Below, piece after piece: positions 3,976 through 28,583 of a stretch of DNA of 33,970 bases. Both the position numbers and the translations under genes were made by a program. The stretch is from a virus. The notes beneath the pieces were generated by a model that was given only the letters and a program-made list of their open reading frames with translations, was not told the DNA's origin and did not search any database. The stretch lies in the UHGV virus genome UHGV-0040082; one strand, 5' to 3'. Position 1 is the first letter of the stretch, and every line of letters begins with the position of its first letter.

Positions 3976-4500
3976 TTATGTGCCATGATTAACACCATAA
4001 TATTTTTCTTCTAAAAACATCCTGTAAGCTACTGCATCACCGAAATCGTCAAAGTATTTATTGCTTTTTCTTTTTCCGTTCACAGCTATATACACCCTCC
4101 ACTGCTCCCTAGACTTGCACCACGATACACCACGAAAACCGCTAGTATTGTTTGACTTTATTTTCCCACTCCTTACGAAATCAGCACAGTTATCAACCTG
4201 ATAACCTATGTTAAGGTTTTCTATTCTATCATCACCCCTTACGTCGTTAATGTGCCTTATTACATGCTCATCAGGTATCGGGCCGTGATGCATTACCCAT
4301 ATAACTTGATGTCTATAGTAATTTCTCTTTTTATACGTGAATATGTAGTAACCGTTTTTATTCCTGGCGCCCACCGGACCCGGTTTTCTTCTTCCTCCAT
4401 TTTCACATATTAAAGTTTTCCAATATATGTTCCCTTCACTGTATATAAACAAGTCATTCCAGTTTATGCTATTGACCATGTCGTGATTTATTTGTGACAT
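3976..4500 (-). CDS. HNH homing endonuclease with C-terminal AP2-like DNA-binding domain
   Basis: HNH-type motif (HINDVRGDDRIENLN) followed by an AP2-like segment (GFRGVSW...W.V.I..NGK...); AT-rich relative to flanking tail genes; paralog of the ORF at 22125-22631. Confidence 0.8.
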   Translation of the reverse strand: MSQINHDMVNSINWNDLFIYSEGNIYWKTLICENGGRRKPGPVGARNKNGYYIFTYKKRNYYRHQVIWVMHHGPIPDEHVIRHINDVRGDDRIENLNIGYQVDNCADFVRSGKIKSNNTSGFRGVSWCKSREQWRVYIAVNGKRKSNKYFDDFGDAVAYRMFLEEKYYGVNHGT

Positions 4501-4742
4501 CCCTTAACCCCTGATAATTCATTAAATTTATGGTGCTCAACTATTGCCCACACTTTTAGATCCTTGCTGTACACTCGCCAATCAAGGTTGGCACGGAATG
4601 CGTAGCCGTATCCGTCTTTCAGTTTTTTGGGTGCTACGTCTTTCCTCAAGAACGCGTCCAGAAGTTCTTTTGCTTTTTTGACTACATGATCAGGTGCGTT
4701 TTTCTGTGCTTTCAGATTTTTACCAATCGCTACCAATTTCAT
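4488..4742 (-). CDS. Hypothetical protein (84 aa) upstream of and overlapping the HNH gene
   Basis: ORF overlaps the HNH start by 13 nt, suggesting an operon; no domain recognised. Confidence 0.4.
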   Translation of the reverse strand: MKLVAIGKNLKAQKNAPDHVVKKAKELLDAFLRKDVAPKKLKDGYGYAFRANLDWRVYSKDLKVWAIVEHHKFNELSGVKGCHK

Positions 4743-14572: not shown

Positions 14573-17500
14573 ATGATTTACACAACTGGAACAGTTGCCA
14601 TTAACGGCAATACTGTTAAAGGCACGGGAACAAACTTTTCCGCGCCGCTTTCTCTTATTCGTGTAGGTTGCACGCTCATTGCTGTTGGCAATCCTGTGCA
14701 GATCTTTACCATCACGGAAATTAAAAGCGGCACTGAACTGTTAGTGACGCCAGCAGCTAACCCCGCAATCCCTGCCGGGACAAAATTTAGCATCCTGCTA
14801 TCTGATTCGATCTCAGTTGATGGGCTTGCTCAGGACGTAGCTGAAACCCTGCGTTACTACCAGAGCAAAGAAACAGAAATCGCCTCCGCCGTAGAGTGGT
14901 GGAATGAGATCGGCGGCGAAGGTCAGTTGGATCAGCTTCTTACCAACATTCGCGCAGAAACAGCCAAATCAACCGCTAACGCTCAAAAAACAGAAACTGA
15001 CAAAAACGCAGCAGAAGCGTCAAAAACAGCGGCTGCAAAATCCGCCACGGCAGCGAAAACATCAGAAACCAACGCTAAGGCAAGCGAGACGGCAGCGAAA
15101 ACAAGCGAAACCAAAGCCAAAACATCAGAGGACAGGGCGCAAGAATATCTGAATCAAATGGGAAGGCTTACCAGCCCAATGGTCCAATGTGCTTGGCCTG
15201 TTGAAACTAGCGGTAATGGCGCTTACGTTAAGATTGCTAAACTTAGCGATCCAAAGTCATCAGACTGCCACTTAACGCTAATGGTTACAAATGGCGGTGG
15301 CTACGGTTTAAGTTACGGGAATATTGACTTTATAGAGATCTCCGCTCGAGGTCTTAACGACACAGGCGAAGTAACCAGTGAAAATATATCTAAATTTTTA
15401 AGTATTCGCCGACTCGGTTCACCAAACCTTCCCAATAATAGTCAAATGTGTTACGGCCTGGTTAAAGGTGACGGCTATATCGAGGTCTGGTGCTACCAGC
15501 GATCTTATATTAAAAACACAAAAGTAGCGGTGCTGGCGCAGACTGGCAACACGGAATTATACATTCCTGAAGGATTTGTTAAGCAAGCCGACGCACCCGC
15601 TGGATATATTGAAAGCCCAGCAGCAAGGATTTACGACCAGGTAAACAAACCCAGCAAGGCAGATCTGGGCCTTTCTAATGCTATGCTTACAGGCGCTTTC
15701 GGTCTTGGCGGTAGCGGGATATCAACAACCGGCAAGATGAGCGATGTAGAGATCTTAAAAGCTCTGCGTGACAAAGGTGGTCATTTCTGGCGCAGTGATA
15801 GGCCGACCGGAAGTACGGCGACCATTTATAGCCGCGGTTCTGGTATATTCTCGCGGTGCGGCGATACGTGGTCGGCGATCAATATCGACTACGGAACAGG
15901 TAAAGTCAAGGTTTACGCTGGTAACGATGGTGGACTTAATAGTGGTAATTTTTCCGTCAATGAGCTATACGGAACCAAAAATAAACCGTCGAAATCGGAC
16001 GTTGGACTTGACAACGTAACCAACGATGCACAGGTTAAAAAATCCGGCGACACCATGACTGGCGACCTGTCGATCACTAAAGCAACACCTTCGATATACA
16101 TTCGTTCAAAAAGTGGAACCGCCCATGTATGGTTCCAGAATGAGGATCAATCGGAACGCGGTGTTATCTGGGCGCCTACCAATTCCGAAGGACTTGGCGA
16201 AGTTCACATCAGGGCCAAAAATACAAAAGGTGAATCAACTGGTGAACTCATTGTTCGTCACGACGGGGAAATTAGGGTTCCCAGTCTCACAGCGAGTAAA
16301 AAAATAAAAGGCGCAACCGCAGATTTTACAAACACATCAGAAACCACGACGGAGAACACGTTAAAAATCAGCGGTAAGCAGCATACACCGTTAGTTTTAA
16401 CGCGTACCGGGTATTCTGAAAACCTGTCCATTGGCTTCAAGGTTGATAACGTTGTTCAAAAATACCTCGGTATTAATAGCGGTGGGGATCTGTGTTTTGG
16501 TGATTATGCCGATCACAAAACAAACAGCAAAGTTATCACGCAAGCAGTGCTTGATAGCGGTGTGACGGTAGGCGGTCAGACAACCTTTTCTAAACTTGCC
16601 ACATTTAGCAAAGGCATGACCGGGCCTATCGTACCGGAAGGGCTTGACTCACGTACCATTGATCTTAATGACCTAATCATCAATGGTTCAGATATAGGAT
16701 CGGTCAAATACTATCAATGTACATCTTCCAGTGGTGGAGCGAACATTACCAACAAGCCTGACGGCGTAGGCGGTAACTTCTTGCTGCGTGTAGAGTCAGT
16801 CCGTAAAGTTAGTGATACTGACTATATAAGTATGCAAACACTGACTAGTGGCGACAAAGAACGCGTATTTGTTCGTTTTAATACTAATAGTAAGTGGACA
16901 GCATGGTGTGAACCTGTTGTATCGGGATGGAAGCAGGATGTGTCTGTTAAGACGCTAACAGCAGCCGAAGACGTCATCCTTAAAAACAGTGATACTGGTC
17001 CGCGCCTTATTTTAAGGAACTCTAACACATCGGCGCAGTCGTGGAGTGTAAGGGTGTGGGGTGAAAGCGGAAGGGAAAGCGTTTTTGAGGTTGGTAACAG
17101 CAATAGTTACATGTTCTATGCTCAGGAAGATGCAGCAGGAAACAAGAAATTTGACTTTAACGGTGATATTTCATGTAAGACGCTATATCAAACTTCTGAC
17201 CAGAGCCTTAAAGACAACATTAAGGTTATAGGTGACGCCACCGAATCCATCCGCAAAATGAATGGGTACACCTACACGTTTAAGGACGATGGCCTGCCTT
17301 ACGCTGGCGTTATTGCACAGGAAGTAATGGACGCGCTGCCTGAAGCGATAGCGTTTACCACTCTTTGCGGCAAGGAGCTACAAGGACCAACAACTGACGG
17401 CAACATCTTACGCGAGGAAATGAAGTGCCTCAGCGTTGACTATGCGGCGGTGACTGGTTTACTTGTCCAGGTGGCACGCGAAACGGATAACCGCGTCACC

Positions 17501-17608
17501 GAACTGGAAGAGGAGAACGCAAGCCTGAAAGCTAACATTGCCGCAATGGATGAGCGGATAGCAAAACTTGAAGCGCTTATCAGTCAGTTGACCGGAAGCG
17601 AAGAATAA
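14573..17608 (+). CDS. Side tail fiber with C-terminal intramolecular chaperone (peptidase S74-like) domain
   Basis: 1011 aa; Ala/Thr/Lys-rich heptad-like N-terminal repeats; C-terminus has SDQSLKDNI...GVIAQEV...P.A motif typical of self-cleaving fiber chaperone domains, then a coiled-coil tail; RBS GGAG. Confidence 0.8.
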   Translation: MIYTTGTVAINGNTVKGTGTNFSAPLSLIRVGCTLIAVGNPVQIFTITEIKSGTELLVTPAANPAIPAGTKFSILLSDSISVDGLAQDVAETLRYYQSKETEIASAVEWWNEIGGEGQLDQLLTNIRAETAKSTANAQKTETDKNAAEASKTAAAKSATAAKTSETNAKASETAAKTSETKAKTSEDRAQEYLNQMGRLTSPMVQCAWPVETSGNGAYVKIAKLSDPKSSDCHLTLMVTNGGGYGLSYGNIDFIEISARGLNDTGEVTSENISKFLSIRRLGSPNLPNNSQMCYGLVKGDGYIEVWCYQRSYIKNTKVAVLAQTGNTELYIPEGFVKQADAPAGYIESPAARIYDQVNKPSKADLGLSNAMLTGAFGLGGSGISTTGKMSDVEILKALRDKGGHFWRSDRPTGSTATIYSRGSGIFSRCGDTWSAINIDYGTGKVKVYAGNDGGLNSGNFSVNELYGTKNKPSKSDVGLDNVTNDAQVKKSGDTMTGDLSITKATPSIYIRSKSGTAHVWFQNEDQSERGVIWAPTNSEGLGEVHIRAKNTKGESTGELIVRHDGEIRVPSLTASKKIKGATADFTNTSETTTENTLKISGKQHTPLVLTRTGYSENLSIGFKVDNVVQKYLGINSGGDLCFGDYADHKTNSKVITQAVLDSGVTVGGQTTFSKLATFSKGMTGPIVPEGLDSRTIDLNDLIINGSDIGSVKYYQCTSSSGGANITNKPDGVGGNFLLRVESVRKVSDTDYISMQTLTSGDKERVFVRFNTNSKWTAWCEPVVSGWKQDVSVKTLTAAEDVILKNSDTGPRLILRNSNTSAQSWSVRVWGESGRESVFEVGNSNSYMFYAQEDAAGNKKFDFNGDISCKTLYQTSDQSLKDNIKVIGDATESIRKMNGYTYTFKDDGLPYAGVIAQEVMDALPEAIAFTTLCGKELQGPTTDGNILREEMKCLSVDYAAVTGLLVQVARETDNRVTELEEENASLKANIAAMDERIAKLEALISQLTGSEE

Positions 17609-17638
17609 GAGGTGATGTGCGAAGAACATCGCCGCGCG

Positions 17639-17666
17639 AAACGAGGCTAACGCCTCGTTTCTTTTT
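17639..17666 (+). terminator. Rho-independent terminator after the side tail fiber gene
   Basis: 9-bp stem aaacgaggc/gcctcgttt, loop taac, followed by cttttt. Confidence 0.75.
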
Positions 17667-17812
17667 ATGTACCAAATAGTGACCAAATACCCAAAACCAA
17701 AAACAAAAGCACTGTAACATACTGTTTTATAAATTATTATTCACAAAGCTAACCATTCCAAGCATACGGCAGATGGCAGGGCGACCAAGAAGAATTGTTG
17801 TCGTTTTATCCA

Positions 17813-19106: not shown

Positions 19107-19667
19107 TCAAAACAATTGCAATTGAAAACGTTCGCTGACTTCTTTCATTAACTGCTTAACATGTTTCTTATCACGCTTTCGCTGAGTTAACAGGCGGCTT
19201 CCAACCTTGCCGACCGTTTCGCTATCAGTAGCAAAACTGCTTACTGCATTCATTACCTGTTCACAGCTTGCGCCGCAACAAATAAGACCCTTAACGTGTT
19301 CAGCCATGTCATCATGTGTTTTAGGTTTTTCTCCGTAATAGCCATTATGACGAATAGATGGCAATACTTCCTCAAACACCCAATCCTGGAAGCGTTCGGC
19401 TGATTCAAGTTTTGAATGCATAATCAAGCGGAAAACATCCGGTTCGTAAATCAGGCCAACTCCTTTCGGCTTGAATCCGAATCCTAATTCTCGCGTTTTG
19501 CGAGAATCAAGTTTAATCAATGATTTACAGTGTTTTTTAATAGCATCATGCTCGTTCTTATAACCTAACGCGCGAGCAACATTAACAGCAACAAAAGCTG
19601 GCTTATCTGCATAAATAACCGTTTGCACTTGTTTATCATCAAACGAGAATTTAACAACCTTATTCAT
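19107..19667 (-). CDS. Bro-N domain protein (antirepressor-like)
   Basis: N-terminal Bro-N-like segment (AVARALGY..EHDAIKKHCKSLIKLDS ... SKLESAERFQDWVFEEVLPSIR); paralog of the ORF at 23783-24520. Confidence 0.7.
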   Translation of the reverse strand: MNKVVKFSFDDKQVQTVIYADKPAFVAVNVARALGYKNEHDAIKKHCKSLIKLDSRKTRELGFGFKPKGVGLIYEPDVFRLIMHSKLESAERFQDWVFEEVLPSIRHNGYYGEKPKTHDDMAEHVKGLICCGASCEQVMNAVSSFATDSETVGKVGSRLLTQRKRDKKHVKQLMKEVSERFQLQLF

Positions 19668-19867: not shown

Positions 19868-20074
19868 TTACACAATCCGCATTGTGTTTCGTAATTCTCC
19901 GCGCAACGCCCGTAATGCATCGCGCATCGGCACGAAAACCCGGTTAAATTTTACGTGTTTATATTTCCGCATTAGTGGCGGCGTATACACCATTGCGTCG
20001 TATACTTCCCACGGATAATAAACACGCGTATCGTCAACAAACGTTTCAACTGAATAAAAAATTACACGCCTCAT
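19868..20074 (-). CDS. Hypothetical small protein (68 aa)
   Basis: ORF with plausible RBS; no domain recognised. Confidence 0.3.
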   Translation of the reverse strand: MRRVIFYSVETFVDDTRVYYPWEVYDAMVYTPPLMRKYKHVKFNRVFVPMRDALRALRGELRNTMRIV

Positions 20075-22124: not shown

Positions 22125-22631
22125 TCAGGGTAAAGAAATACCGTGATTGCTATGAAAGTTATACATTCTTTCAGCTTCTTTTCTTGCTTTTACGGCATCA
22201 TCAAATGAGTCACCGTAATAAACGTATATTGTTTTCTTTTTCCCATCAGACCCCCTTATACCTATTTGCGCGCGCCATTTATTAGTTTTCTTGTTCCATG
22301 TAACGCCAACGCATCCGCTGGTGTTACTTGATGGTATTGTTTTATTTCTGTTGTTCTCCCTCCTTGTAACCATCCTTAAGTTTTCGATTCTATCATCGCC
22401 AGGCACATGATTTATGTGATCTATTTCCATTCCATCAGGGATAGGGCCGTTAAACATTTCCCAAATAATGCGGTGACGCCATGTACAACACACACCATTA
22501 ACGCGGATAGTCCAATATCCGCTATGATGCCTACTTCCAGCAACGTCACCGGCTTTTGTTTTGTTATTTGCGCGGTTACAAGACCAATATAGAACACCGT
22601 CCCTATAGGTAAATAAATCATCCCACATCAT
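22125..22631 (-). CDS. HNH homing endonuclease with AP2-like domain (second copy)
   Basis: EIDHINHVPGDDRIENLR motif followed by GCVGVTW...W.A.I motif; start overlaps the stop of the upstream gene; paralog of the ORF at 3976-4500. Confidence 0.75.
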   Translation of the reverse strand: MMWDDLFTYRDGVLYWSCNRANNKTKAGDVAGSRHHSGYWTIRVNGVCCTWRHRIIWEMFNGPIPDGMEIDHINHVPGDDRIENLRMVTRRENNRNKTIPSSNTSGCVGVTWNKKTNKWRAQIGIRGSDGKKKTIYVYYGDSFDDAVKARKEAERMYNFHSNHGISLP

Positions 22632-23748
22632 GACACACCACCATTTCAGGCCTATATACAAAGCGACCAATTTCGCCATAATCAGGACTGTAAATGATAA
22701 CCGCCGCGCAACGTTGCGATCTCCATCCTCCATTAGTTGAATAAGCGTCTTTGCCCGCTAACGTGCCGTGGTGTTCAACTATGCCTATAGATGATTCTGT
22801 TACTGATTTATGGTGCAAATGTCCGACATGGACGTAAACATATTTCGACTTGCCGAAATCCTCGCGCCAGTCAGCTACGCAAGCAGCCAATAAATTTTCC
22901 GGCTTTTTAATAGTGTGCCCGTGGTGGTAAGCAAGAAATGTTTTACCGTACTGCGTGTGGTGGACGATAGCAGGTGACACATCAACCGTCACGCGCGGTT
23001 CATCTTCGTAAAAAGCCGCCAGCGCCGCACGTAGCCAAATCATGCCTGACTGATCGTGATTGCCTGACAACACCTGGATTTCAACATCCTTATGATTTAA
23101 CAACATTTTACCTACCGCCCGCCGGACAGACCGGATCGCCACATAAACAAGTTTTGCGTAGCGACTATCTTGATCAAGAATGTGCCCGCTTATTGGCGTC
23201 ACCGGGACCATACCGTCAGAATGAAGCAGATCGCCACCGAGGAGCAGTACGGCTTTTTCAGACATCGGAGCAGCGCCAACAGCGTAGTCAAAGAAGTCAT
23301 TCAACACGCGCTCAGCGATCCCAGTGTCGTAGCTCTCGCCGCATTCAGCTTTATGAGCAAGCGCCCCGATATGCAGATCAAACACCGGATAAAGGGCCAG
23401 GCTTTTTTGAAAATCAATTTCAGGCACTGGCACAGCCTCCGCGCGTGGTATTTCATCCGTGAAAGCGTCGCGGGCCGCTTCCATTAACTGTTCCATTTCG
23501 TCGCGGTCACGGGCTGTTTTAATCCAGCGCATGATCACATTGCCATCCTTATCGACGAGCAATGACTCAGCATTGACGCCAAAACCCGGTGCGCGACGCG
23601 TGGATATTAAACCGCGTTTCGCCAGTTTTGCGCCTAGCCGCTCGACGTTGCGTTTTGACATGCCATATTTTTCAGCGATCTGCTTGTACGTTAAACCGTT
23701 GTTATATTCAGCGATCAATTGCTCATCGCTGATTTTTCTTTGTGACAT
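22618..23748 (-). CDS. HTH domain fused to calcineurin-like metallophosphoesterase
   Basis: N-terminal HTH (LTYKQIAEKYGMSKRNVERL); then phosphoesterase motifs in order: DLHIG, GGDLLHSDG, GNHD, YHHGH, GHLHH. Confidence 0.7.
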   Translation of the reverse strand: MSQRKISDEQLIAEYNNGLTYKQIAEKYGMSKRNVERLGAKLAKRGLISTRRAPGFGVNAESLLVDKDGNVIMRWIKTARDRDEMEQLMEAARDAFTDEIPRAEAVPVPEIDFQKSLALYPVFDLHIGALAHKAECGESYDTGIAERVLNDFFDYAVGAAPMSEKAVLLLGGDLLHSDGMVPVTPISGHILDQDSRYAKLVYVAIRSVRRAVGKMLLNHKDVEIQVLSGNHDQSGMIWLRAALAAFYEDEPRVTVDVSPAIVHHTQYGKTFLAYHHGHTIKKPENLLAACVADWREDFGKSKYVYVHVGHLHHKSVTESSIGIVEHHGTLAGKDAYSTNGGWRSQRCAAVIIYSPDYGEIGRFVYRPEMVVCHDVG

Positions 23749-23782: not shown

Positions 23783-24520
23783 TTAGTTGCAAGTTAAAAG
23801 CTCAGTGATCCATACTTGTCCTTTAGCAGTGAATACAGCCTGCTCATATCCATCGTGAGTTACCCTCATTTCACCGTAGCCCTCATCAATAAACCACTGA
23901 CTGAATACACGGCGGCGACAGCGAAGATCATAAACACCAACCGCCGAAAGTTTTCTGTTTAATTTTACGGCTGACATTCCCAGCGGTTTAGCTACCTCTG
24001 AAGCCGTTCGGTGCATATCGTTTTTGACTATCGCGTCACATACAGCCGCTTTCGGAGCCAGCACTTTATTTTCAAGCGCAAGACGTTCATTTTCTTGCTT
24101 AACTAACAATTTTTGCTCGTATTCATTAGCCCACGCCCGCGCCGCTTCCGCAGGGTTAGAGAAGTCAGGCAAAGCAGGTTTGCAACCGTAACACCCATTT
24201 TCACGCAAAGCCGGAAGAACCTCCTCGCACACCCAATCCTGGAAGCGCTCGGCTGATTCTAATTTTGATCTCATAACAAGACGGTATATATCTGCCTCTC
24301 GAATTATAATTATGCCTTTTGGTCTGAACCCAAAACCTAATTCCGTTGTTTTAACGGAATCAAGTTTAATCAATGACTTACAATGTTTTTTAATGGCCTG
24401 ATGCTCGTCGTTGTACCCCAGCGCACGGGCCACATCAACCGCAACAAAAGCAGGTTTACCGTCATAAATTACAGCAGTGATTTTATTGTCATCAAAATTA
24501 AAACACATCAACTCAGACAT
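23783..24520 (-). CDS. Bro-N / KilA-C-type antirepressor-like protein
   Basis: Start at MSELM with GGAGA RBS; N-terminal Bro-N segment near-identical in places to the ORF at 19107-19667; longer C-terminal domain. Confidence 0.7.
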   Translation of the reverse strand: MSELMCFNFDDNKITAVIYDGKPAFVAVDVARALGYNDEHQAIKKHCKSLIKLDSVKTTELGFGFRPKGIIIIREADIYRLVMRSKLESAERFQDWVCEEVLPALRENGCYGCKPALPDFSNPAEAARAWANEYEQKLLVKQENERLALENKVLAPKAAVCDAIVKNDMHRTASEVAKPLGMSAVKLNRKLSAVGVYDLRCRRRVFSQWFIDEGYGEMRVTHDGYEQAVFTAKGQVWITELLTCN

Positions 24521-24652
24521 TGTAATTTCTCCGTAAAACGCTCTACAACGCAAAAATCCCACCGCGTAACCCGTTTGCACAGGTTGCAGTGTCTTATTGC
24601 GCCAGAGGCGCTATCAGGTGGCTAATTTTCGATTTACAGACTGGTATGTAGG

Positions 24653-24768: not shown

Positions 24769-25407
24769 CTAAAACGAATTATTAGAAACGAATTTTCTGT
24801 ATGGCTTAGGTAACGAAGGAGTGTTGCCGCCAAATAACAACCTTATCGCATTAACAGAAAACTCAACATACATAAACGGTTCACCATCAGCATGATAGCC
24901 AACCTGTTGGCGAGCAAGCCCGCGAAGCGCCATAGACGGCGTAACAATCCAGCCATTATCAACCTTTTGAACCATGCCCAGCTTTGCAGCAGCCTTATAA
25001 ACTTCACCAGACTTTCCAGGCAAGATTTTCCCTGGAGTAAGGAATACACCCTCAAGCATGTTGATCAGGCAATCATTTTCCTTGCGTAACTGCGCTGCCT
25101 CTTTCTCTCTTTCGATGAAGTAGTCACGAACCGCGCGCCCCTTAGGTGTGTGCTGGATCATCGCAATGTGTTTTGCTGCCTCAACAGTCAGAAAATATTC
25201 AGATGCTGGGCGGCCTCCATCCAGGTTATGAACATTTTTGTTCAAAACCTCAAAATCCAAAGACTTACGCAACCCGCACGCCTTTATCTGACGCTTTATC
25301 CACATGTGATAAGGAGTTTTAACACCCATTGCCTCATGTAACTGGCGACCGTCAACAGCCTCGCGCGTAACGCCGTCCATATCCTTAACAACAATATCGA
25401 ACTTCAT
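24769..25407 (-). CDS. AntA-domain antirepressor-like protein
   Basis: 212 aa; N-terminal region resembles the AntA/AntB family; RBS GAGAGGA. Confidence 0.5.
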   Translation of the reverse strand: MKFDIVVKDMDGVTREAVDGRQLHEAMGVKTPYHMWIKRQIKACGLRKSLDFEVLNKNVHNLDGGRPASEYFLTVEAAKHIAMIQHTPKGRAVRDYFIEREKEAAQLRKENDCLINMLEGVFLTPGKILPGKSGEVYKAAAKLGMVQKVDNGWIVTPSMALRGLARQQVGYHADGEPFMYVEFSVNAIRLLFGGNTPSLPKPYRKFVSNNSF

Positions 25408-25540: not shown

Positions 25541-26587
25541 TCAAAGAGCGCCACATCGTGTATCACGTAGCGTTTTTGGTTTAAGTAGAAAATCCAGTGT
25601 CGCAGTAAAGCCATTGCCGAAGTAAAAATCTGAAGCCGTGTTTTTGAACGTTTCAAAGTAGGCGACAAAGCCGTTGATGCTTTTGTCTTTCAGGTAGTCA
25701 GTGAACGCATAAATCTTGCGTTCAAGATCCCTATCCAGTTCGGCAGGTGGCAACAGGCCATCAAACGTGCTGTTAAATGCCTCCACTACGTCGGCAGCGT
25801 TTGCAGTGGCTGACAGTTTGCGCCATTTTTCAGCATCAGCCAGATACCCATCAAATTTAGTTACCCGGCAAATGTTTATAGGCTTAGGTGTTCCACCACG
25901 GCTACGCCATTGCGTTAAAGCCCACTCAATCACTAATGTGATCTCATCCTCCGTATACGCTTTACGTGTTTTTGTTTCTGTCAGTAGTTCGATGAATGGC
26001 TTCGCATCACGACATTTGCATCCTGCCTTGTCGTTGTAGAAGGCCAGGCAACGCAACGCCGCTTCGTTTACGCCATCATGATTGACATGTTTTTCTTCTG
26101 GGGGGATATAAGGGGGTATATTTTTAATGTTCTCTTTACTGGTTATATATGACTGGTTAGGGTGACTCTGTGTCACTACCCCCGGTGACTCTGTGTCACT
26201 ACCCTGGTGACTCTGTGTCACTACCCCCGGTGACTCTGTGTCACTACCCTGGTGACTCTGTGTCACTACCCCCGGTGTCACAGTGACACTACCATGCAAT
26301 GACGGAAGGACTATTACATAGAAATTACTAGTTTGCTCTTTTCCTCCGATTAAGTATCTTGGTTGTTTAATCAACAACCCTTTTTCACAAAGTGAGTCTA
26401 CAGCCCTCATAGCTGTTCTTTTGCTGATCTCACACTCCTTTGCTATGTGATGGTAAGAAGGGTAACACTCGCCGTTATCATTAGCGTTATCAGCTAACTT
26501 CAACAGCACTAGTTTGTGCATTGGGTCGCCGACCTCAGTATGGAAGACCTCTACCATTAGCCGCATACTCATAAGCATTAACCTCAT
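25541..26587 (-). CDS. Replication initiator (lambda O-like) containing the origin iterons
   Basis: N-terminal winged-helix/HTH segment, internal peptide repeats GVVTQSHQGSDTESP x3 encoded by DNA iterons, gene sits upstream of the DnaB helicase. Exact start uncertain. Confidence 0.65.
   Translation of the reverse strand: MRLMLMSMRLMVEVFHTEVGDPMHKLVLLKLADNANDNGECYPSYHHIAKECEISKRTAMRAVDSLCEKGLLIKQPRYLIGGKEQTSNFYVIVLPSLHGSVTVTPGVVTQSHQGSDTESPGVVTQSHQGSDTESPGVVTQSHPNQSYITSKENIKNIPPYIPPEEKHVNHDGVNEAALRCLAFYNDKAGCKCRDAKPFIELLTETKTRKAYTEDEITLVIEWALTQWRSRGGTPKPINICRVTKFDGYLADAEKWRKLSATANAADVVEAFNSTFDGLLPPAELDRDLERKIYAFTDYLKDKSINGFVAYFETFKNTASDFYFGNGFTATLDFLLKPKTLRDTRCGAL
26161..26293. repeat. Origin-like iteron array: five 22/23-bp direct repeats plus one palindromic variant
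   Basis: ggtgactctgtgtcactaccc(cc/t) repeated five times (26161-26273), then ggtgtcacagtgacactacc; each unit has internal dyad symmetry GTGAC..GTCAC; AT-rich tract at 26100-26160 on the downstream side. Confidence 0.7.
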
Positions 26588-26593
26588 GACGAA

Positions 26594-26839
26594 CTAAAAC
26601 ATTAACTGATAAACACAGAAGAAACCTGGTAGCTGGCTGATTAGGCCGCTTCTTTTCAGTTGATGAAGTGCAGAGATAGTATCGCGTAACGGAATTTCGC
26701 ACATTTCAGCGATTTCTTCCGGCGTTACTTCGCTTTTGCCGTTGCATCCGGCCTTTGTTGCCAGTGCAATTAAGATGAGTTTTTGCGCCGGATCATTGTT
26801 ATTCAGGCGAATATCAAAAGCCTTGCGCACGTAATACAT
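26594..26839 (-). CDS. Small HTH protein at the Cro position
   Basis: 81 aa; first gene of the minus operon, divergent from the repressor; RBS GGAGA; its HTH resembles the N-terminal HTH of the adjacent O-like protein rather than a classical Cro. Confidence 0.5.
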   Translation of the reverse strand: MYYVRKAFDIRLNNNDPAQKLILIALATKAGCNGKSEVTPEEIAEMCEIPLRDTISALHQLKRSGLISQLPGFFCVYQLMF

Positions 26840-27143
26840 ATTCTATCTCCTATGATTAGAGTGAACGCGCGGGCGGGCATCCCATTAGCATTAGATAGCA
26901 GTGACTGACCGCTCAACAGATCCCGCCGTTGCGTGATATTTGTTTTTCGCTTCGCAGCGACACCGGATTTTTAAAGAGCTTAAGGCGTCGGCCTTTTTGT
27001 GCTTTCCCTTATCTTTTTCCTTGCATCATTGCAAGTATGGCTTTACCTTGTCAGCAAGTTTACAGAATGGCGCTAACGGGTCAAGACTTAAAAAACACGT
27101 TTTGTGACTTGCATCAAAATTTTTTAGGTTATAGGGTAGCGAC
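26840..27143. promoter_or_regulatory. Divergent control region between Cro-position gene and repressor gene
   Basis: 304-bp intergenic region between divergent starts; repeated element CTTGCATCA at 27019-27027 and 27109-27117, the first within inverted repeat TTGCA-N4-TGCAA; weak TTGCAT/TATAGG promoter-like pair just before the repressor ATG. Confidence 0.45.
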
Positions 27144-27647
27144 ATGAAAACAAAATGGTATGACTTAGCAAAACAACTCATGCGGGCGCAGGGCATGAGC
27201 CAGGATTCATTGGCTGATCTTATGGGGATAACCAAAGGCGGCCTTTCTCACTGGCTGAACGGTCGCCGTGAGCCGAATCTTGAAGATATTGCGCGTATCA
27301 TGCGGGCGCTTGGGCGTCGGCAATTCACTGTTACTCATGACGGAATGGTCATTGATGATTCTGTTTCTAACACGTTGCTGGGAGCGCCACCGCGTGATTT
27401 AGGCAGTTATCCGGTTGTTGACTGGAAGGATGTAGCAAACAATATGGAAGGCACACACCGATCAACATTGCCACACGTTGCTACTAGCGTTATTTGTTCG
27501 GATGATAGTTATTGGCTGGTTGCTAAAGGTGAATCAATGAACGCACCGCAGGGGTTAAGCATCCCGGCGGGGACTATGATACTCGTTGACCCGCACGCGC
27601 CAGCTATTGACGGAAAACTTGTTATAGCACAACTGGAGGAAGGGTAG
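27144..27647 (+). CDS. CI-like repressor (HTH plus S24 peptidase domain), ended prematurely by in-frame TAG
   Basis: N-terminal HTH (MSQDSLADLMGITKGGLSHWLNGRREP), S24 Ser motif GESM; TAG at 27645-27647 comes before the expected catalytic Lys segment. Confidence 0.75.
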   Translation: MKTKWYDLAKQLMRAQGMSQDSLADLMGITKGGLSHWLNGRREPNLEDIARIMRALGRRQFTVTHDGMVIDDSVSNTLLGAPPRDLGSYPVVDWKDVANNMEGTHRSTLPHVATSVICSDDSYWLVAKGESMNAPQGLSIPAGTMILVDPHAPAIDGKLVIAQLEEG

Positions 27648-27791
27648 ATACCTACGTTTAAGCAGTTGATTATTGATGGAGGCCGAAAACTTTTGCGTTC
27701 GCTTAATCCGCTGTATCCGCCAATCCCTATGAATCCAGAATCAAAAATATTGGGCGTGGTGGTTGATGCGAAGATCGTAAACCTGCCATAA
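27648..27791 (+). other. In-frame continuation of the repressor reading frame after the TAG
   Basis: Same frame translates to IPTFKQLIIDGGRKLLRSLNPLYPPIPMNPESKILGVVVDAKIVNLP, resembling the C-terminus of lambda CI (..FTFKKLI..LQPLNPQYP.I.....VVGKV..), ending at TAA 27789-27791. Confidence 0.7.
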
Positions 27792-27797
27792 ACATTA

Positions 27798-27818
27798 GCC
27801 GCCGGATGGCGGCTTTTC
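27798..27818 (+). terminator. Rho-independent terminator after the repressor frame
   Basis: Hairpin gccgcc-ggat-ggcggc followed by ttttctt. Confidence 0.65.
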
Positions 27819-27915
27819 TTCGCCCAAAAAAACACCAAAACGTAAACAGAAAACGCTATTTATTGTTTAGATATCAATAGCATATAAAATATTTTAAAAA
27901 AGTATACAAAATGGA

Positions 27916-27944
27916 TTGACTCGGTGTTTTACGGGGCGTATATT
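27916..27944 (+). promoter_or_regulatory. Near-consensus sigma70-type promoter (pL-like) for the plus-strand early operon
   Basis: TTGACT (27916-27921), 17-nt spacer, TATATT (27939-27944). Confidence 0.6.
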
Positions 27945-28198
27945 GCGAATCAAAGGAAGGGCGTAGGTAACAAAAGCAGCTTCCTGGCACTTTAAAAATC
28001 AGGCTTAACACCTTGTCAACCGTGGAGTAACTCCCCGATGGGGGACCGAAAGCGGCACTGATAACAAGGCGCATGGGGTGTTTAAAGCGTTACATCCCCC
28101 ACGAAACCGCACGCAAGGCGACGAGTCAGCTTGCTTGGAGTGAGCAAGGTCACACCGGAAACGGCGATGATTGCGGGATTAGTTGAAAGATGTTAAGC

Positions 28199-28236
28199 CG
28201 CTCATTAAAAATCTGGTCAGCCGCTGGAAGTGCGGC
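28199..28236 (+). promoter_or_regulatory. Candidate nut-like site (boxA-like plus boxB-like hairpin)
   Basis: CGCTCATTA (28199-28207; compare lambdoid boxA CGCTCTTA), then hairpin GCCGC-tggaagt-GCGGC at 28220-28236, about 55 nt upstream of the N-like gene. Confidence 0.4.
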
Positions 28237-28292: not shown

Positions 28293-28583
28293 ATGAGCGT
28301 TACAATTATGTATGGAAAATGTGATAGCAAAATGAACGCCAGGGAACGCAGAAGGATAAAAAGAGAAAACGAAAGAAAATCATCACCTGCAATTAATAAA
28401 ACAGACAATGTGGATAAAGCTATTCGATTTGCAAACGAGGAAAGGTGCAAACCAAATAGCATTAAAGAACGTCGCAAAGGATCAGTAAAATGGTATACGG
28501 AAAATGAAAGCGGCAGCTACTACCACGCAACGCAACCACGCCATTTAGGGGAGAAACCCCTGGATAAAGTCCGTTACCATTAA
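28293..28583 (+). CDS. N-like antiterminator candidate (arginine-rich motif protein)
   Basis: 96 aa; N-terminal arginine-rich segment NARERRRIKRENERK; first gene downstream of the pL-like promoter and nut-like site; RBS GGAG. Confidence 0.45.
   Translation: MSVTIMYGKCDSKMNARERRRIKRENERKSSPAINKTDNVDKAIRFANEERCKPNSIKERRKGSVKWYTENESGSYYHATQPRHLGEKPLDKVRYH

Follow-up and report, generated by a model that had tools for sequence, protein, structure and literature searches.

Amber codon in the immunity repressor and loss of integrase in a probably lysogeny-defective mEpimmI phage lineage

The DNA analysed here, a stretch of 33,970 nt of the virus genome UHGV-0040082 (hereafter the window), carries a phage repressor gene whose reading frame is interrupted by an amber codon. 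As shown in Table 1, the repressor ORF starts with the ATG at 27144 and is closed after 167 codons by the TAG at 27645-27647; past this stop the same frame stays open for 47 more codons (IPTFKQLIIDGGRKLLRSLNPLYPPIPMNPESKILGVVVDAKIVNLP) up to a TAA at 27789-27791. The motif GESM was found at residues 129-132 and contains the putative nucleophile Ser131 (codon 27534-27536). The motif TFKQL lies in the continuation at residues 171-175, where the codon of Lys173 (27660-27662) comes five codons after the TAG. The stop thus occupies codon 168, between the catalytic residues Ser131 and Lys173, at the position equivalent to Asp187 of lambda CI. Behind the TAA, a hairpin with a T-run was located at 27797-27814 within the terminator of the gene, which is annotated as such in the phages mEp515, mEp010 and mEp021. 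All of this agrees with a preliminary description of the window made from its letters, which had reported a 167-aa ORF ending at this TAG, a 47-codon continuation to the TAA and a terminator just after it. Gene-by-gene comparison showed that the nonsense codon in the repressor was the sole internal stop among the conserved genes. Extra stops in the homologues of mEp010_104, 'K' and gp09 were also considered and were rejected as signs of pseudogenes, being explained by over-extended 5' annotations of the reference or by a variable C-terminus.

Table 1. Features of the repressor region and of the attP region in the window (positions are those of the window).
Feature	Position	Strand	Remarks
Retained attP P arm, type-I, mEp554-like	17609..17759	+	93% identity with the final 199 nt in the mEp554 record
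Remnant of xis-like HTH gene, about the first 22 codons	17748..17813	-	tblastn E=0.018-0.05 against mEp010 and strain 190 proteins
Deletion junction in the 9-bp att core TCCAGACAG	17757..17760	.	Window reads CATTCCA/AGCATACGG (slash, junction)
Divergent 81-aa HTH gene, first of the leftward replication operon	26594..26839	-	Intact, 99% identical to mEp010_17
Truncated repressor ORF, 167 aa	27144..27647	+	HTH_3 (residues 10-57) and first half of S24 with Ser131
Amber codon TAG	27645..27647	+	C to T at 27645, from CAG (Gln168)
3' remnant of repressor gene, untranslated, 47 codons and TAA	27648..27791	+	Encodes Lys173 and the C-terminal S24 strands
Intrinsic terminator of repressor gene	27797..27822	+	7-bp G+C-rich stem, 4-nt loop, T-run
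Sigma-70-like promoter of the rightward early operon	27916..27944	+	TTGACT-17-TATATT, 10/12 matches, downstream of the repressor terminator

The family of the repressor was examined with profiles and structures. Residues 10-57 matched HTH_3 (PF01381) with 48-49 bits against a cut-off of 23. When the frame was read through with Gln at position 168, Peptidase_S24 (PF00717, gathering score 23.3 bits) matched residues 113-207 with 65.7 bits and was covered from profile position 26 to its end (26-116 of 116), whereas the truncated repressor gave 31.8 bits over residues 113-165 and covered profile positions 26-74 only. Residues 15-208 of the read-through repressor could be aligned with lambda CI (3bdn; E=2.7e-18), Ser131 falling on S149 and Lys173 on K192, and several of the PDB entries that matched the repressor are named as cI K192A mutants, which identifies that Lys. 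In PHROGs the repressor fell into phrog_4, transcriptional repressor (E=1e-40), and the G-x-S-M signature of S24 repressors was present as GESM with Ser131. The general-base Lys is missing from the 167-aa product and is encoded in the ancestral gene. These matches identify the gene as an HTH-S24 repressor of the Rep021/CI family by descent, and they indicate that the open frame downstream of the TAG is a genuine C-terminal part of the repressor and not a chance frame. The preliminary description had proposed a CI-like repressor with HTH and S24 domains, an amber between the catalytic Ser and Lys, a downstream frame encoding the C-terminal S24 segment, and a product deprived of the Lys and of the C-terminal region; the Pfam matches and the lambda CI alignment bore out these proposals, with homology to the CI family found on both sides of the stop.

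In the linker of the repressor (residues 58-112; 27315-27479), V96-A97 aligned with A111-G112 of lambda CI, and no AG or CG dipeptide was found anywhere in these residues. A linker devoid of Ala-Gly is a trait of the whole mEpimmI group and not of the amber allele. Because the group has no Ala-Gly or Cys-Gly site in the linker, its induction may not go by canonical autocleavage, and it could rest on antirepressors instead.

With regard to the phage itself, the region was 90-95.5% identical at the nucleotide level to mEp515, mEp010, mEp044, mEp021, mEp554 and mEp013, and also to phage MagusPhagus. Each half of the window was covered to 62-81%, at 88-91% identity, by mEp554, mEp044, mEp010 and mEp021, and the coverage of the tail half by mEp013 and mEp515 was lower. 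Gene-by-gene orthology with mEpimmI members held across the window, and the Gp17-like 96-aa gene at 28293-28583 was 99% identical to mEp010_23. Matching prophages were found in 35 of 5426 complete E. coli genomes, and the mEpimmI group has been reported to be common in the human gut. The window comes from an E. coli siphophage of the mEpimmI (mEp021-like) group and is part of a free genome of about 54.5 kb. Compared with Rep021 and the other mEpimmI repressors, its repressor showed 91-99% amino acid identity, a length of 215 aa when read through, the same HTH_3 and Peptidase_S24 domains, and a divergent gene neighbourhood and terminator in common; the read-through Rep was 95% identical to Rep of mEp021 and 97.7% identical to Rep of mEp515 and mEp010. 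Immunity in common is the trait by which the group is defined. The window differs from the mEpimmI group as described (PMC11893012) by a TAG in place of CAG at codon 168 and by having no integrase.

The promoter allele at 27916..27944 was common to 14 intact relatives. A 17-nt element, GCWCWTTAAAAATCWGG, occurs in three copies, one of them inverted (26963-26979, 27987-28003 and 28200-28216); these copies lie to either side of the repressor gene, show high conservation among 34-36 relatives, and are candidates for operators or for regulatory sites of another kind. None of the three elements showed a change private to the lineage, and operator mutations of the lambda-vir type were rejected as a candidate lesion, as both the 17-nt elements and the rightward promoter carry alleles common in intact relatives. 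The head, tail, replication and recombination genes were intact, with normal lengths of the head and tail genes in contig L043; this holds for the window together with contigs L039 and L043, which cover all but about 11 kb of the scaffold (NinG to terminase). Genes of the antirepressor type (Bro-N/ANT/AntA) are present near the repressor at 19107-19667, 23783-24580 and 24769-25407.

Codon 168 was compared among the relatives, and CAG was found in 45 of the 45 outside the lineage, a count built up from four annotated relatives to 33 with the inclusion of 29 IMG/VR contigs, then to 36 full-length repressor homologues, all of them intact, and finally by nine more relatives with CAG. In each of the mEp and MagusPhagus records the repressor is an uninterrupted 648-nt gene. 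Furthermore, the exact protein with Q168 restored exists publicly (P0031), on one 52,850-bp contig (L058, Logan SRR25011068), and it shares both lineage-private residues, L79 and L203. This contig carries a 215-aa Rep, a 72-aa xis-like gene and a 411-aa integrase. Its cI differs from that of the window at one of 648 nt, with C and not T at 27645, and the 3' remnant of the window gene is identical to this intact allele. The change I203L, which lies downstream of the stop, is older than the TAG, so that no sign of post-stop decay is seen. By this comparison, the amber arose recently through the change of one base, and an intact allele just that step away still exists.

The exact 167-aa product was not confined to the window, being called also in ENA ERZ28614608, ENA ERZ27287485 and Logan ERR7745787, of which the last two are possibly one sample, and the independent samples number two to four. 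The contig in ERZ28614608 is scaffold_1096 (54,515 bp, sample SAMEA4969121), which contains no host DNA and has both ends in phage genes; judged from distances in mEp010, its length would fit a complete, circularly permuted genome. The amber-bearing contigs were 100% identical to the window around the repressor and at least 99.97% identical elsewhere, save for a 120-bp patch. At this mosaic patch (19911-20030), about 38 differences including small indels separate the window from scaffold_1096 and ERZ27287485, which have the same variant as each other. The patch coincides with, or immediately precedes, the start of a small early-left ORF, and it has the appearance either of a hypervariable segment or of a short tract left by recombination. 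Since the patch variants differ among the amber contigs, at least two haplotypes carry the TAG. Exact-pattern scans for the amber allele gave no match in IMG/VR, GTDB genomes and JGI metagenomes, and among the collections scanned only ENA and Logan assemblies contained the allele. The literature gave no match to the sample, run and assembly accessions.

A deletion was found at the attachment site. In the records of the mEp phages, which have been opened at attP, int lies at about 150-1400. The window has the end of its side-tail-fibre gene at 17608; the 151 nt that follow match the end of the mEp554 record to its final nucleotide, after which the window resumes at record position 1515. About 1.5 kb is missing, comprising what is left of the att core beyond the junction, the P' arm, int and all but about 22 codons of the xis-like gene. 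The core TCCAGACAG was set by comparing attB (K-12 dgcM/ydaM), attL (the prophage of strain MIN12), attP (mEp554) and the window. The junction was 100% identical in scaffold_1096 and ERZ27287485 (L039, L042), and a scan for the int-less junction in IMG/VR found it absent. When four integrases of two types were used in tblastn, no remnant of an integrase gene was detected, as no match in the window had an E value better than 0.3 and the scaffold parts gave no match at all; among the called genes of scaffold_1096, the precomputed Pfam matches included no recombinase, transposase or partition family. Integrase has been reported in 48 of 48 described mEpimmI genomes (PMC11893012). On these comparisons the window lineage is a derived, int-less member of mEpimmI by descent.

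The left breakpoint of the deletion is within the att core. If about 330 nt is taken as the interval open to it, chance would, by a rough estimate, place it there in about 3% of the int-removing deletions that spare the tail-fibre gene. This position suggests a deletion made by Int, with attP and a weak secondary site as the recombination partners, which is plausible but unproven; the left and right breakpoints share a 3-bp microhomology (CCA), which is also compatible with replication slippage or illegitimate recombination without Int. A comparable class is known from the att-anchored deletions of lambda (b2-type, aberrant excision), whose endpoint is likewise inside the attP core where Int cuts. 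Lambda b2-type deletions take the P-arm side and keep int, whereas the window lineage lost the P' arm and int itself.

We consider it most likely that the window represents a recent lysogeny-defective, clear-plaque-type, lytic-only derivative of a temperate mEpimmI phage, with two lysogeny lesions. By one of them, a C-to-T transition at 27645, codon 168 of the immunity repressor Rep changed from CAG (Gln) to an amber stop. The resulting 167-aa product, Rep(1-167), retains the HTH, the linker and that half of the S24 domain which contains Ser131, and it lacks Lys173 and the last 48 residues. In lambda CI, the segment lost here completes the C-terminal fold and carries the dimerisation and cooperativity surface. 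Owing to the loss of the general base and the C-terminal strands, Rep(1-167) is predicted to be unstable or a weak, non-cooperative DNA binder; it would form no stable cooperative dimers on the operators, and repression would be neither set up nor maintained. By the other, the deletion of about 1.5 kb anchored in the attP core, the phage lost its integrase together with the P' arm and most of the xis-like gene. A phage with neither stable repression nor integration would be expected to grow purely lytically and to form clear plaques. As the regulatory elements are unchanged, this phage should be blocked by Rep in mEpimmI lysogens, so it probably remains subject to the immunity that resident mEpimmI prophages confer and would be cI-minus, not vir. 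Plasmid-cloned Rep021 has been shown to block infection by all six mEp phages (PMC11893012).

Whether the truncated protein could itself be of use to the phage was also considered. In this reading, Rep(1-167) would be retained because it does something useful, for instance tuning early transcription by binding the operators weakly, without cooperativity and in a form that cannot be cleaved. Its HTH domain and linker are intact, and isolated N-terminal domains of lambda CI bind operators weakly. In addition, the CI of the unrelated phage TP901-1 still allows repression after C-terminal truncation (PMC4892519), and by this precedent some residual operator binding by Rep(1-167) is possible. The amber allele also persists in a few samples, but the lineage is nearly clonal, so that persistence of the allele tells little about selection. 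The truncation falls in the middle of the S24 fold and not at a domain boundary, which usually yields an unstable protein, and full length has been kept in all 45 relatives outside the lineage. We therefore regard a useful Rep(1-167) as improbable, although it is the least improbable of the alternatives.

Suppression of the amber was the other way in which the gene might still function, and the preliminary description had named a suppressing host as one of its alternatives. A supE/glnV host, a suppressor tRNA of the phage or natural read-through would each give a functional full-length repressor. The supE suppressor inserts Gln and would restore wild-type Rep exactly, CAG to TAG being the class that Gln-inserting suppressors revert, and the 3' part of the gene shows no further damage, although this is accounted for by the youth of the mutation. 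However, no tRNA genes were detected, either in the window and about 40 kb of scaffold_1096 or in five relatives spanning most of the remaining genome, which cover NinG to the lysis genes and, in mEp010 only, extend through the terminase. TAG is the terminator, at the normal position, of at least four other conserved genes of the window, and an in-frame TAG is present in no other conserved gene. Recoding of TAG and a phage-borne suppressor tRNA were rejected on these grounds. Moreover, amber suppressors are rare in natural E. coli, and with attP, int and xis deleted even a working repressor would still give no stable lysogen. Suppression is very unlikely, and the host-suppression alternative finds no support in the tRNA and TAG survey. 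A related possibility, to which we give even less weight, is that the amber makes the supply of repressor conditional, with rare read-through by near-cognate tRNA-Gln or in a supE host yielding a trickle of full-length Rep. If so, the int-less phage would alternate between lytic growth and a transient, non-integrated carrier state according to host genotype or physiology, and the allele would be retained because of that switching.

The remaining two alternatives had both been raised in the preliminary description, and each is scarcely credible. According to one, the true base at 27645 is C, the repressor is intact and the TAG is a sequencing or assembly error. A single substitution is at issue, the evidence consists of assemblies compared with one another, and the gene 3' of the stop is identical to the intact allele. 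Against this, the identical 167-aa product was present in three accessions obtained with different assemblers, which makes an error unlikely, and the TAG is carried on two haplotypes that differ in the 120-bp patch and a few SNPs. Position 27645 is in no homopolymer, and a Dcm or Dam hotspot or methylation artefact was rejected because its context, GGGCAGATA, contains neither CCWGG nor GATC. The second, independent lysogeny lesion in the same lineage also fits a real loss of function.

According to the other, which was the main reading of the preliminary description, the window is a resident prophage, either cryptic or non-inducible, whose repressor is crippled. The crippled repressor stands, given the homology and the lost Lys, and the group is usually met as prophage (35/5426 complete E. 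coli genomes). The prophage part does not: the genes run from the tail fibre into the early-left genes across attP, which is phage order and not prophage order, there is neither host DNA nor integrase, and the lineage assembles as a stand-alone scaffold of 54.5 kb with ends in phage genes. Besides, a repressor-less prophage with all its lytic genes intact would not be stably maintained. The tail/early-left junction devoid of host DNA and the free scaffold thus point to a lysogeny-defective free phage and not to a resident prophage.

The nonsense mutation of the repressor is in itself an ordinary, well-known kind of event. Classical cI(am) mutants of lambda form clear plaques, a repressor nonsense mutation abolishing lysogeny, and in this they parallel the window lineage. 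The lambda cI ambers are laboratory mutants, whereas the window is a natural metagenomic lineage. Although the repressor is homologous to lambda CI over residues 15-208 and conserves the Ser/Lys dyad, the sequence similarity is only distant, and the Ala-Gly linker site of lambda CI is not shared. In the PDB, lambda CI is represented by 3BDN, 1F39 and 2HO0. [quoted passage not shown] As in the phiLC3 mutant, the stop in the window is in the C-terminal third, and as in all three phages an otherwise intact temperate genome has its repressor knocked out by deletion or nonsense. The window differs from them in phage group and host, in that its repressor lesion is joined with an att-core-anchored loss of int and xis, and in that its phenotype is inferred.

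If the proposed reading is right, a temperate-to-lytic conversion has been caught one base from a surviving intact allele, with two independent hits on lysogeny, namely the repressor stop and the loss of int and xis, the latter possibly made by Int. The occurrence of this defective genome in more than one metagenome suggests that such ex-temperate phages are able to survive for at least some time outside the laboratory. The case bears on virome surveys that call phages temperate from repressor domains, and on the use of temperate-phage derivatives that are naturally lytic.

Another truncated allele of this repressor, independent of the amber, was also encountered. Its protein (P0014) is 207 aa long, ends in PESKNHWRGC and is encoded on five contigs, the longest of 55,331 bp. 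An extra A (+1) in an A5 run near the 3' end of the repressor gene would account for it. Inactivation of the repressor may thus be recurring in free phages of the mEpimmI group, for which P0014 is a hint.

Several further features of the window were recorded. The replication-initiator gene (25541-26572, minus strand) contains, at 26161-26293, about six tandem copies of a 23-nt unit; the same repeat can also be described as three copies of a 45-nt unit (95% matches) and encodes GVVTQSHQGSDTESP repeats. These repeats are iteron-like and probably place the origin inside an O-like gene. The initiators of relatives are 274, 314, 328 and 343 aa long, and from this range the copy number of the repeat may vary among them.

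The side-tail-fibre gene (14573-17608) encodes 1011 aa with a C-terminal Peptidase_S74 chaperone domain and is mosaic. Its ends match the mEp phages, and its middle resembles fibres of Ayreon, of Salmonella T5-like phages and the L-shaped fibres of T5 (76-90% over parts), which suggests a swap of a host-range module. Two ORFs of the HNH_3 homing-endonuclease type and one ORF of a ParE-like toxin family were found at 3976-4500 (-), 22125-22733 (-) and 4488-4742 (-). The ParE-like ORF is among the tail genes, and the HNH_3 ORFs are inserted in the tail and replication regions, with a third just beyond the window end in scaffold_1096. Relative to mEp010, the HNH_3 and ParE-like ORFs are variable accessory genes.
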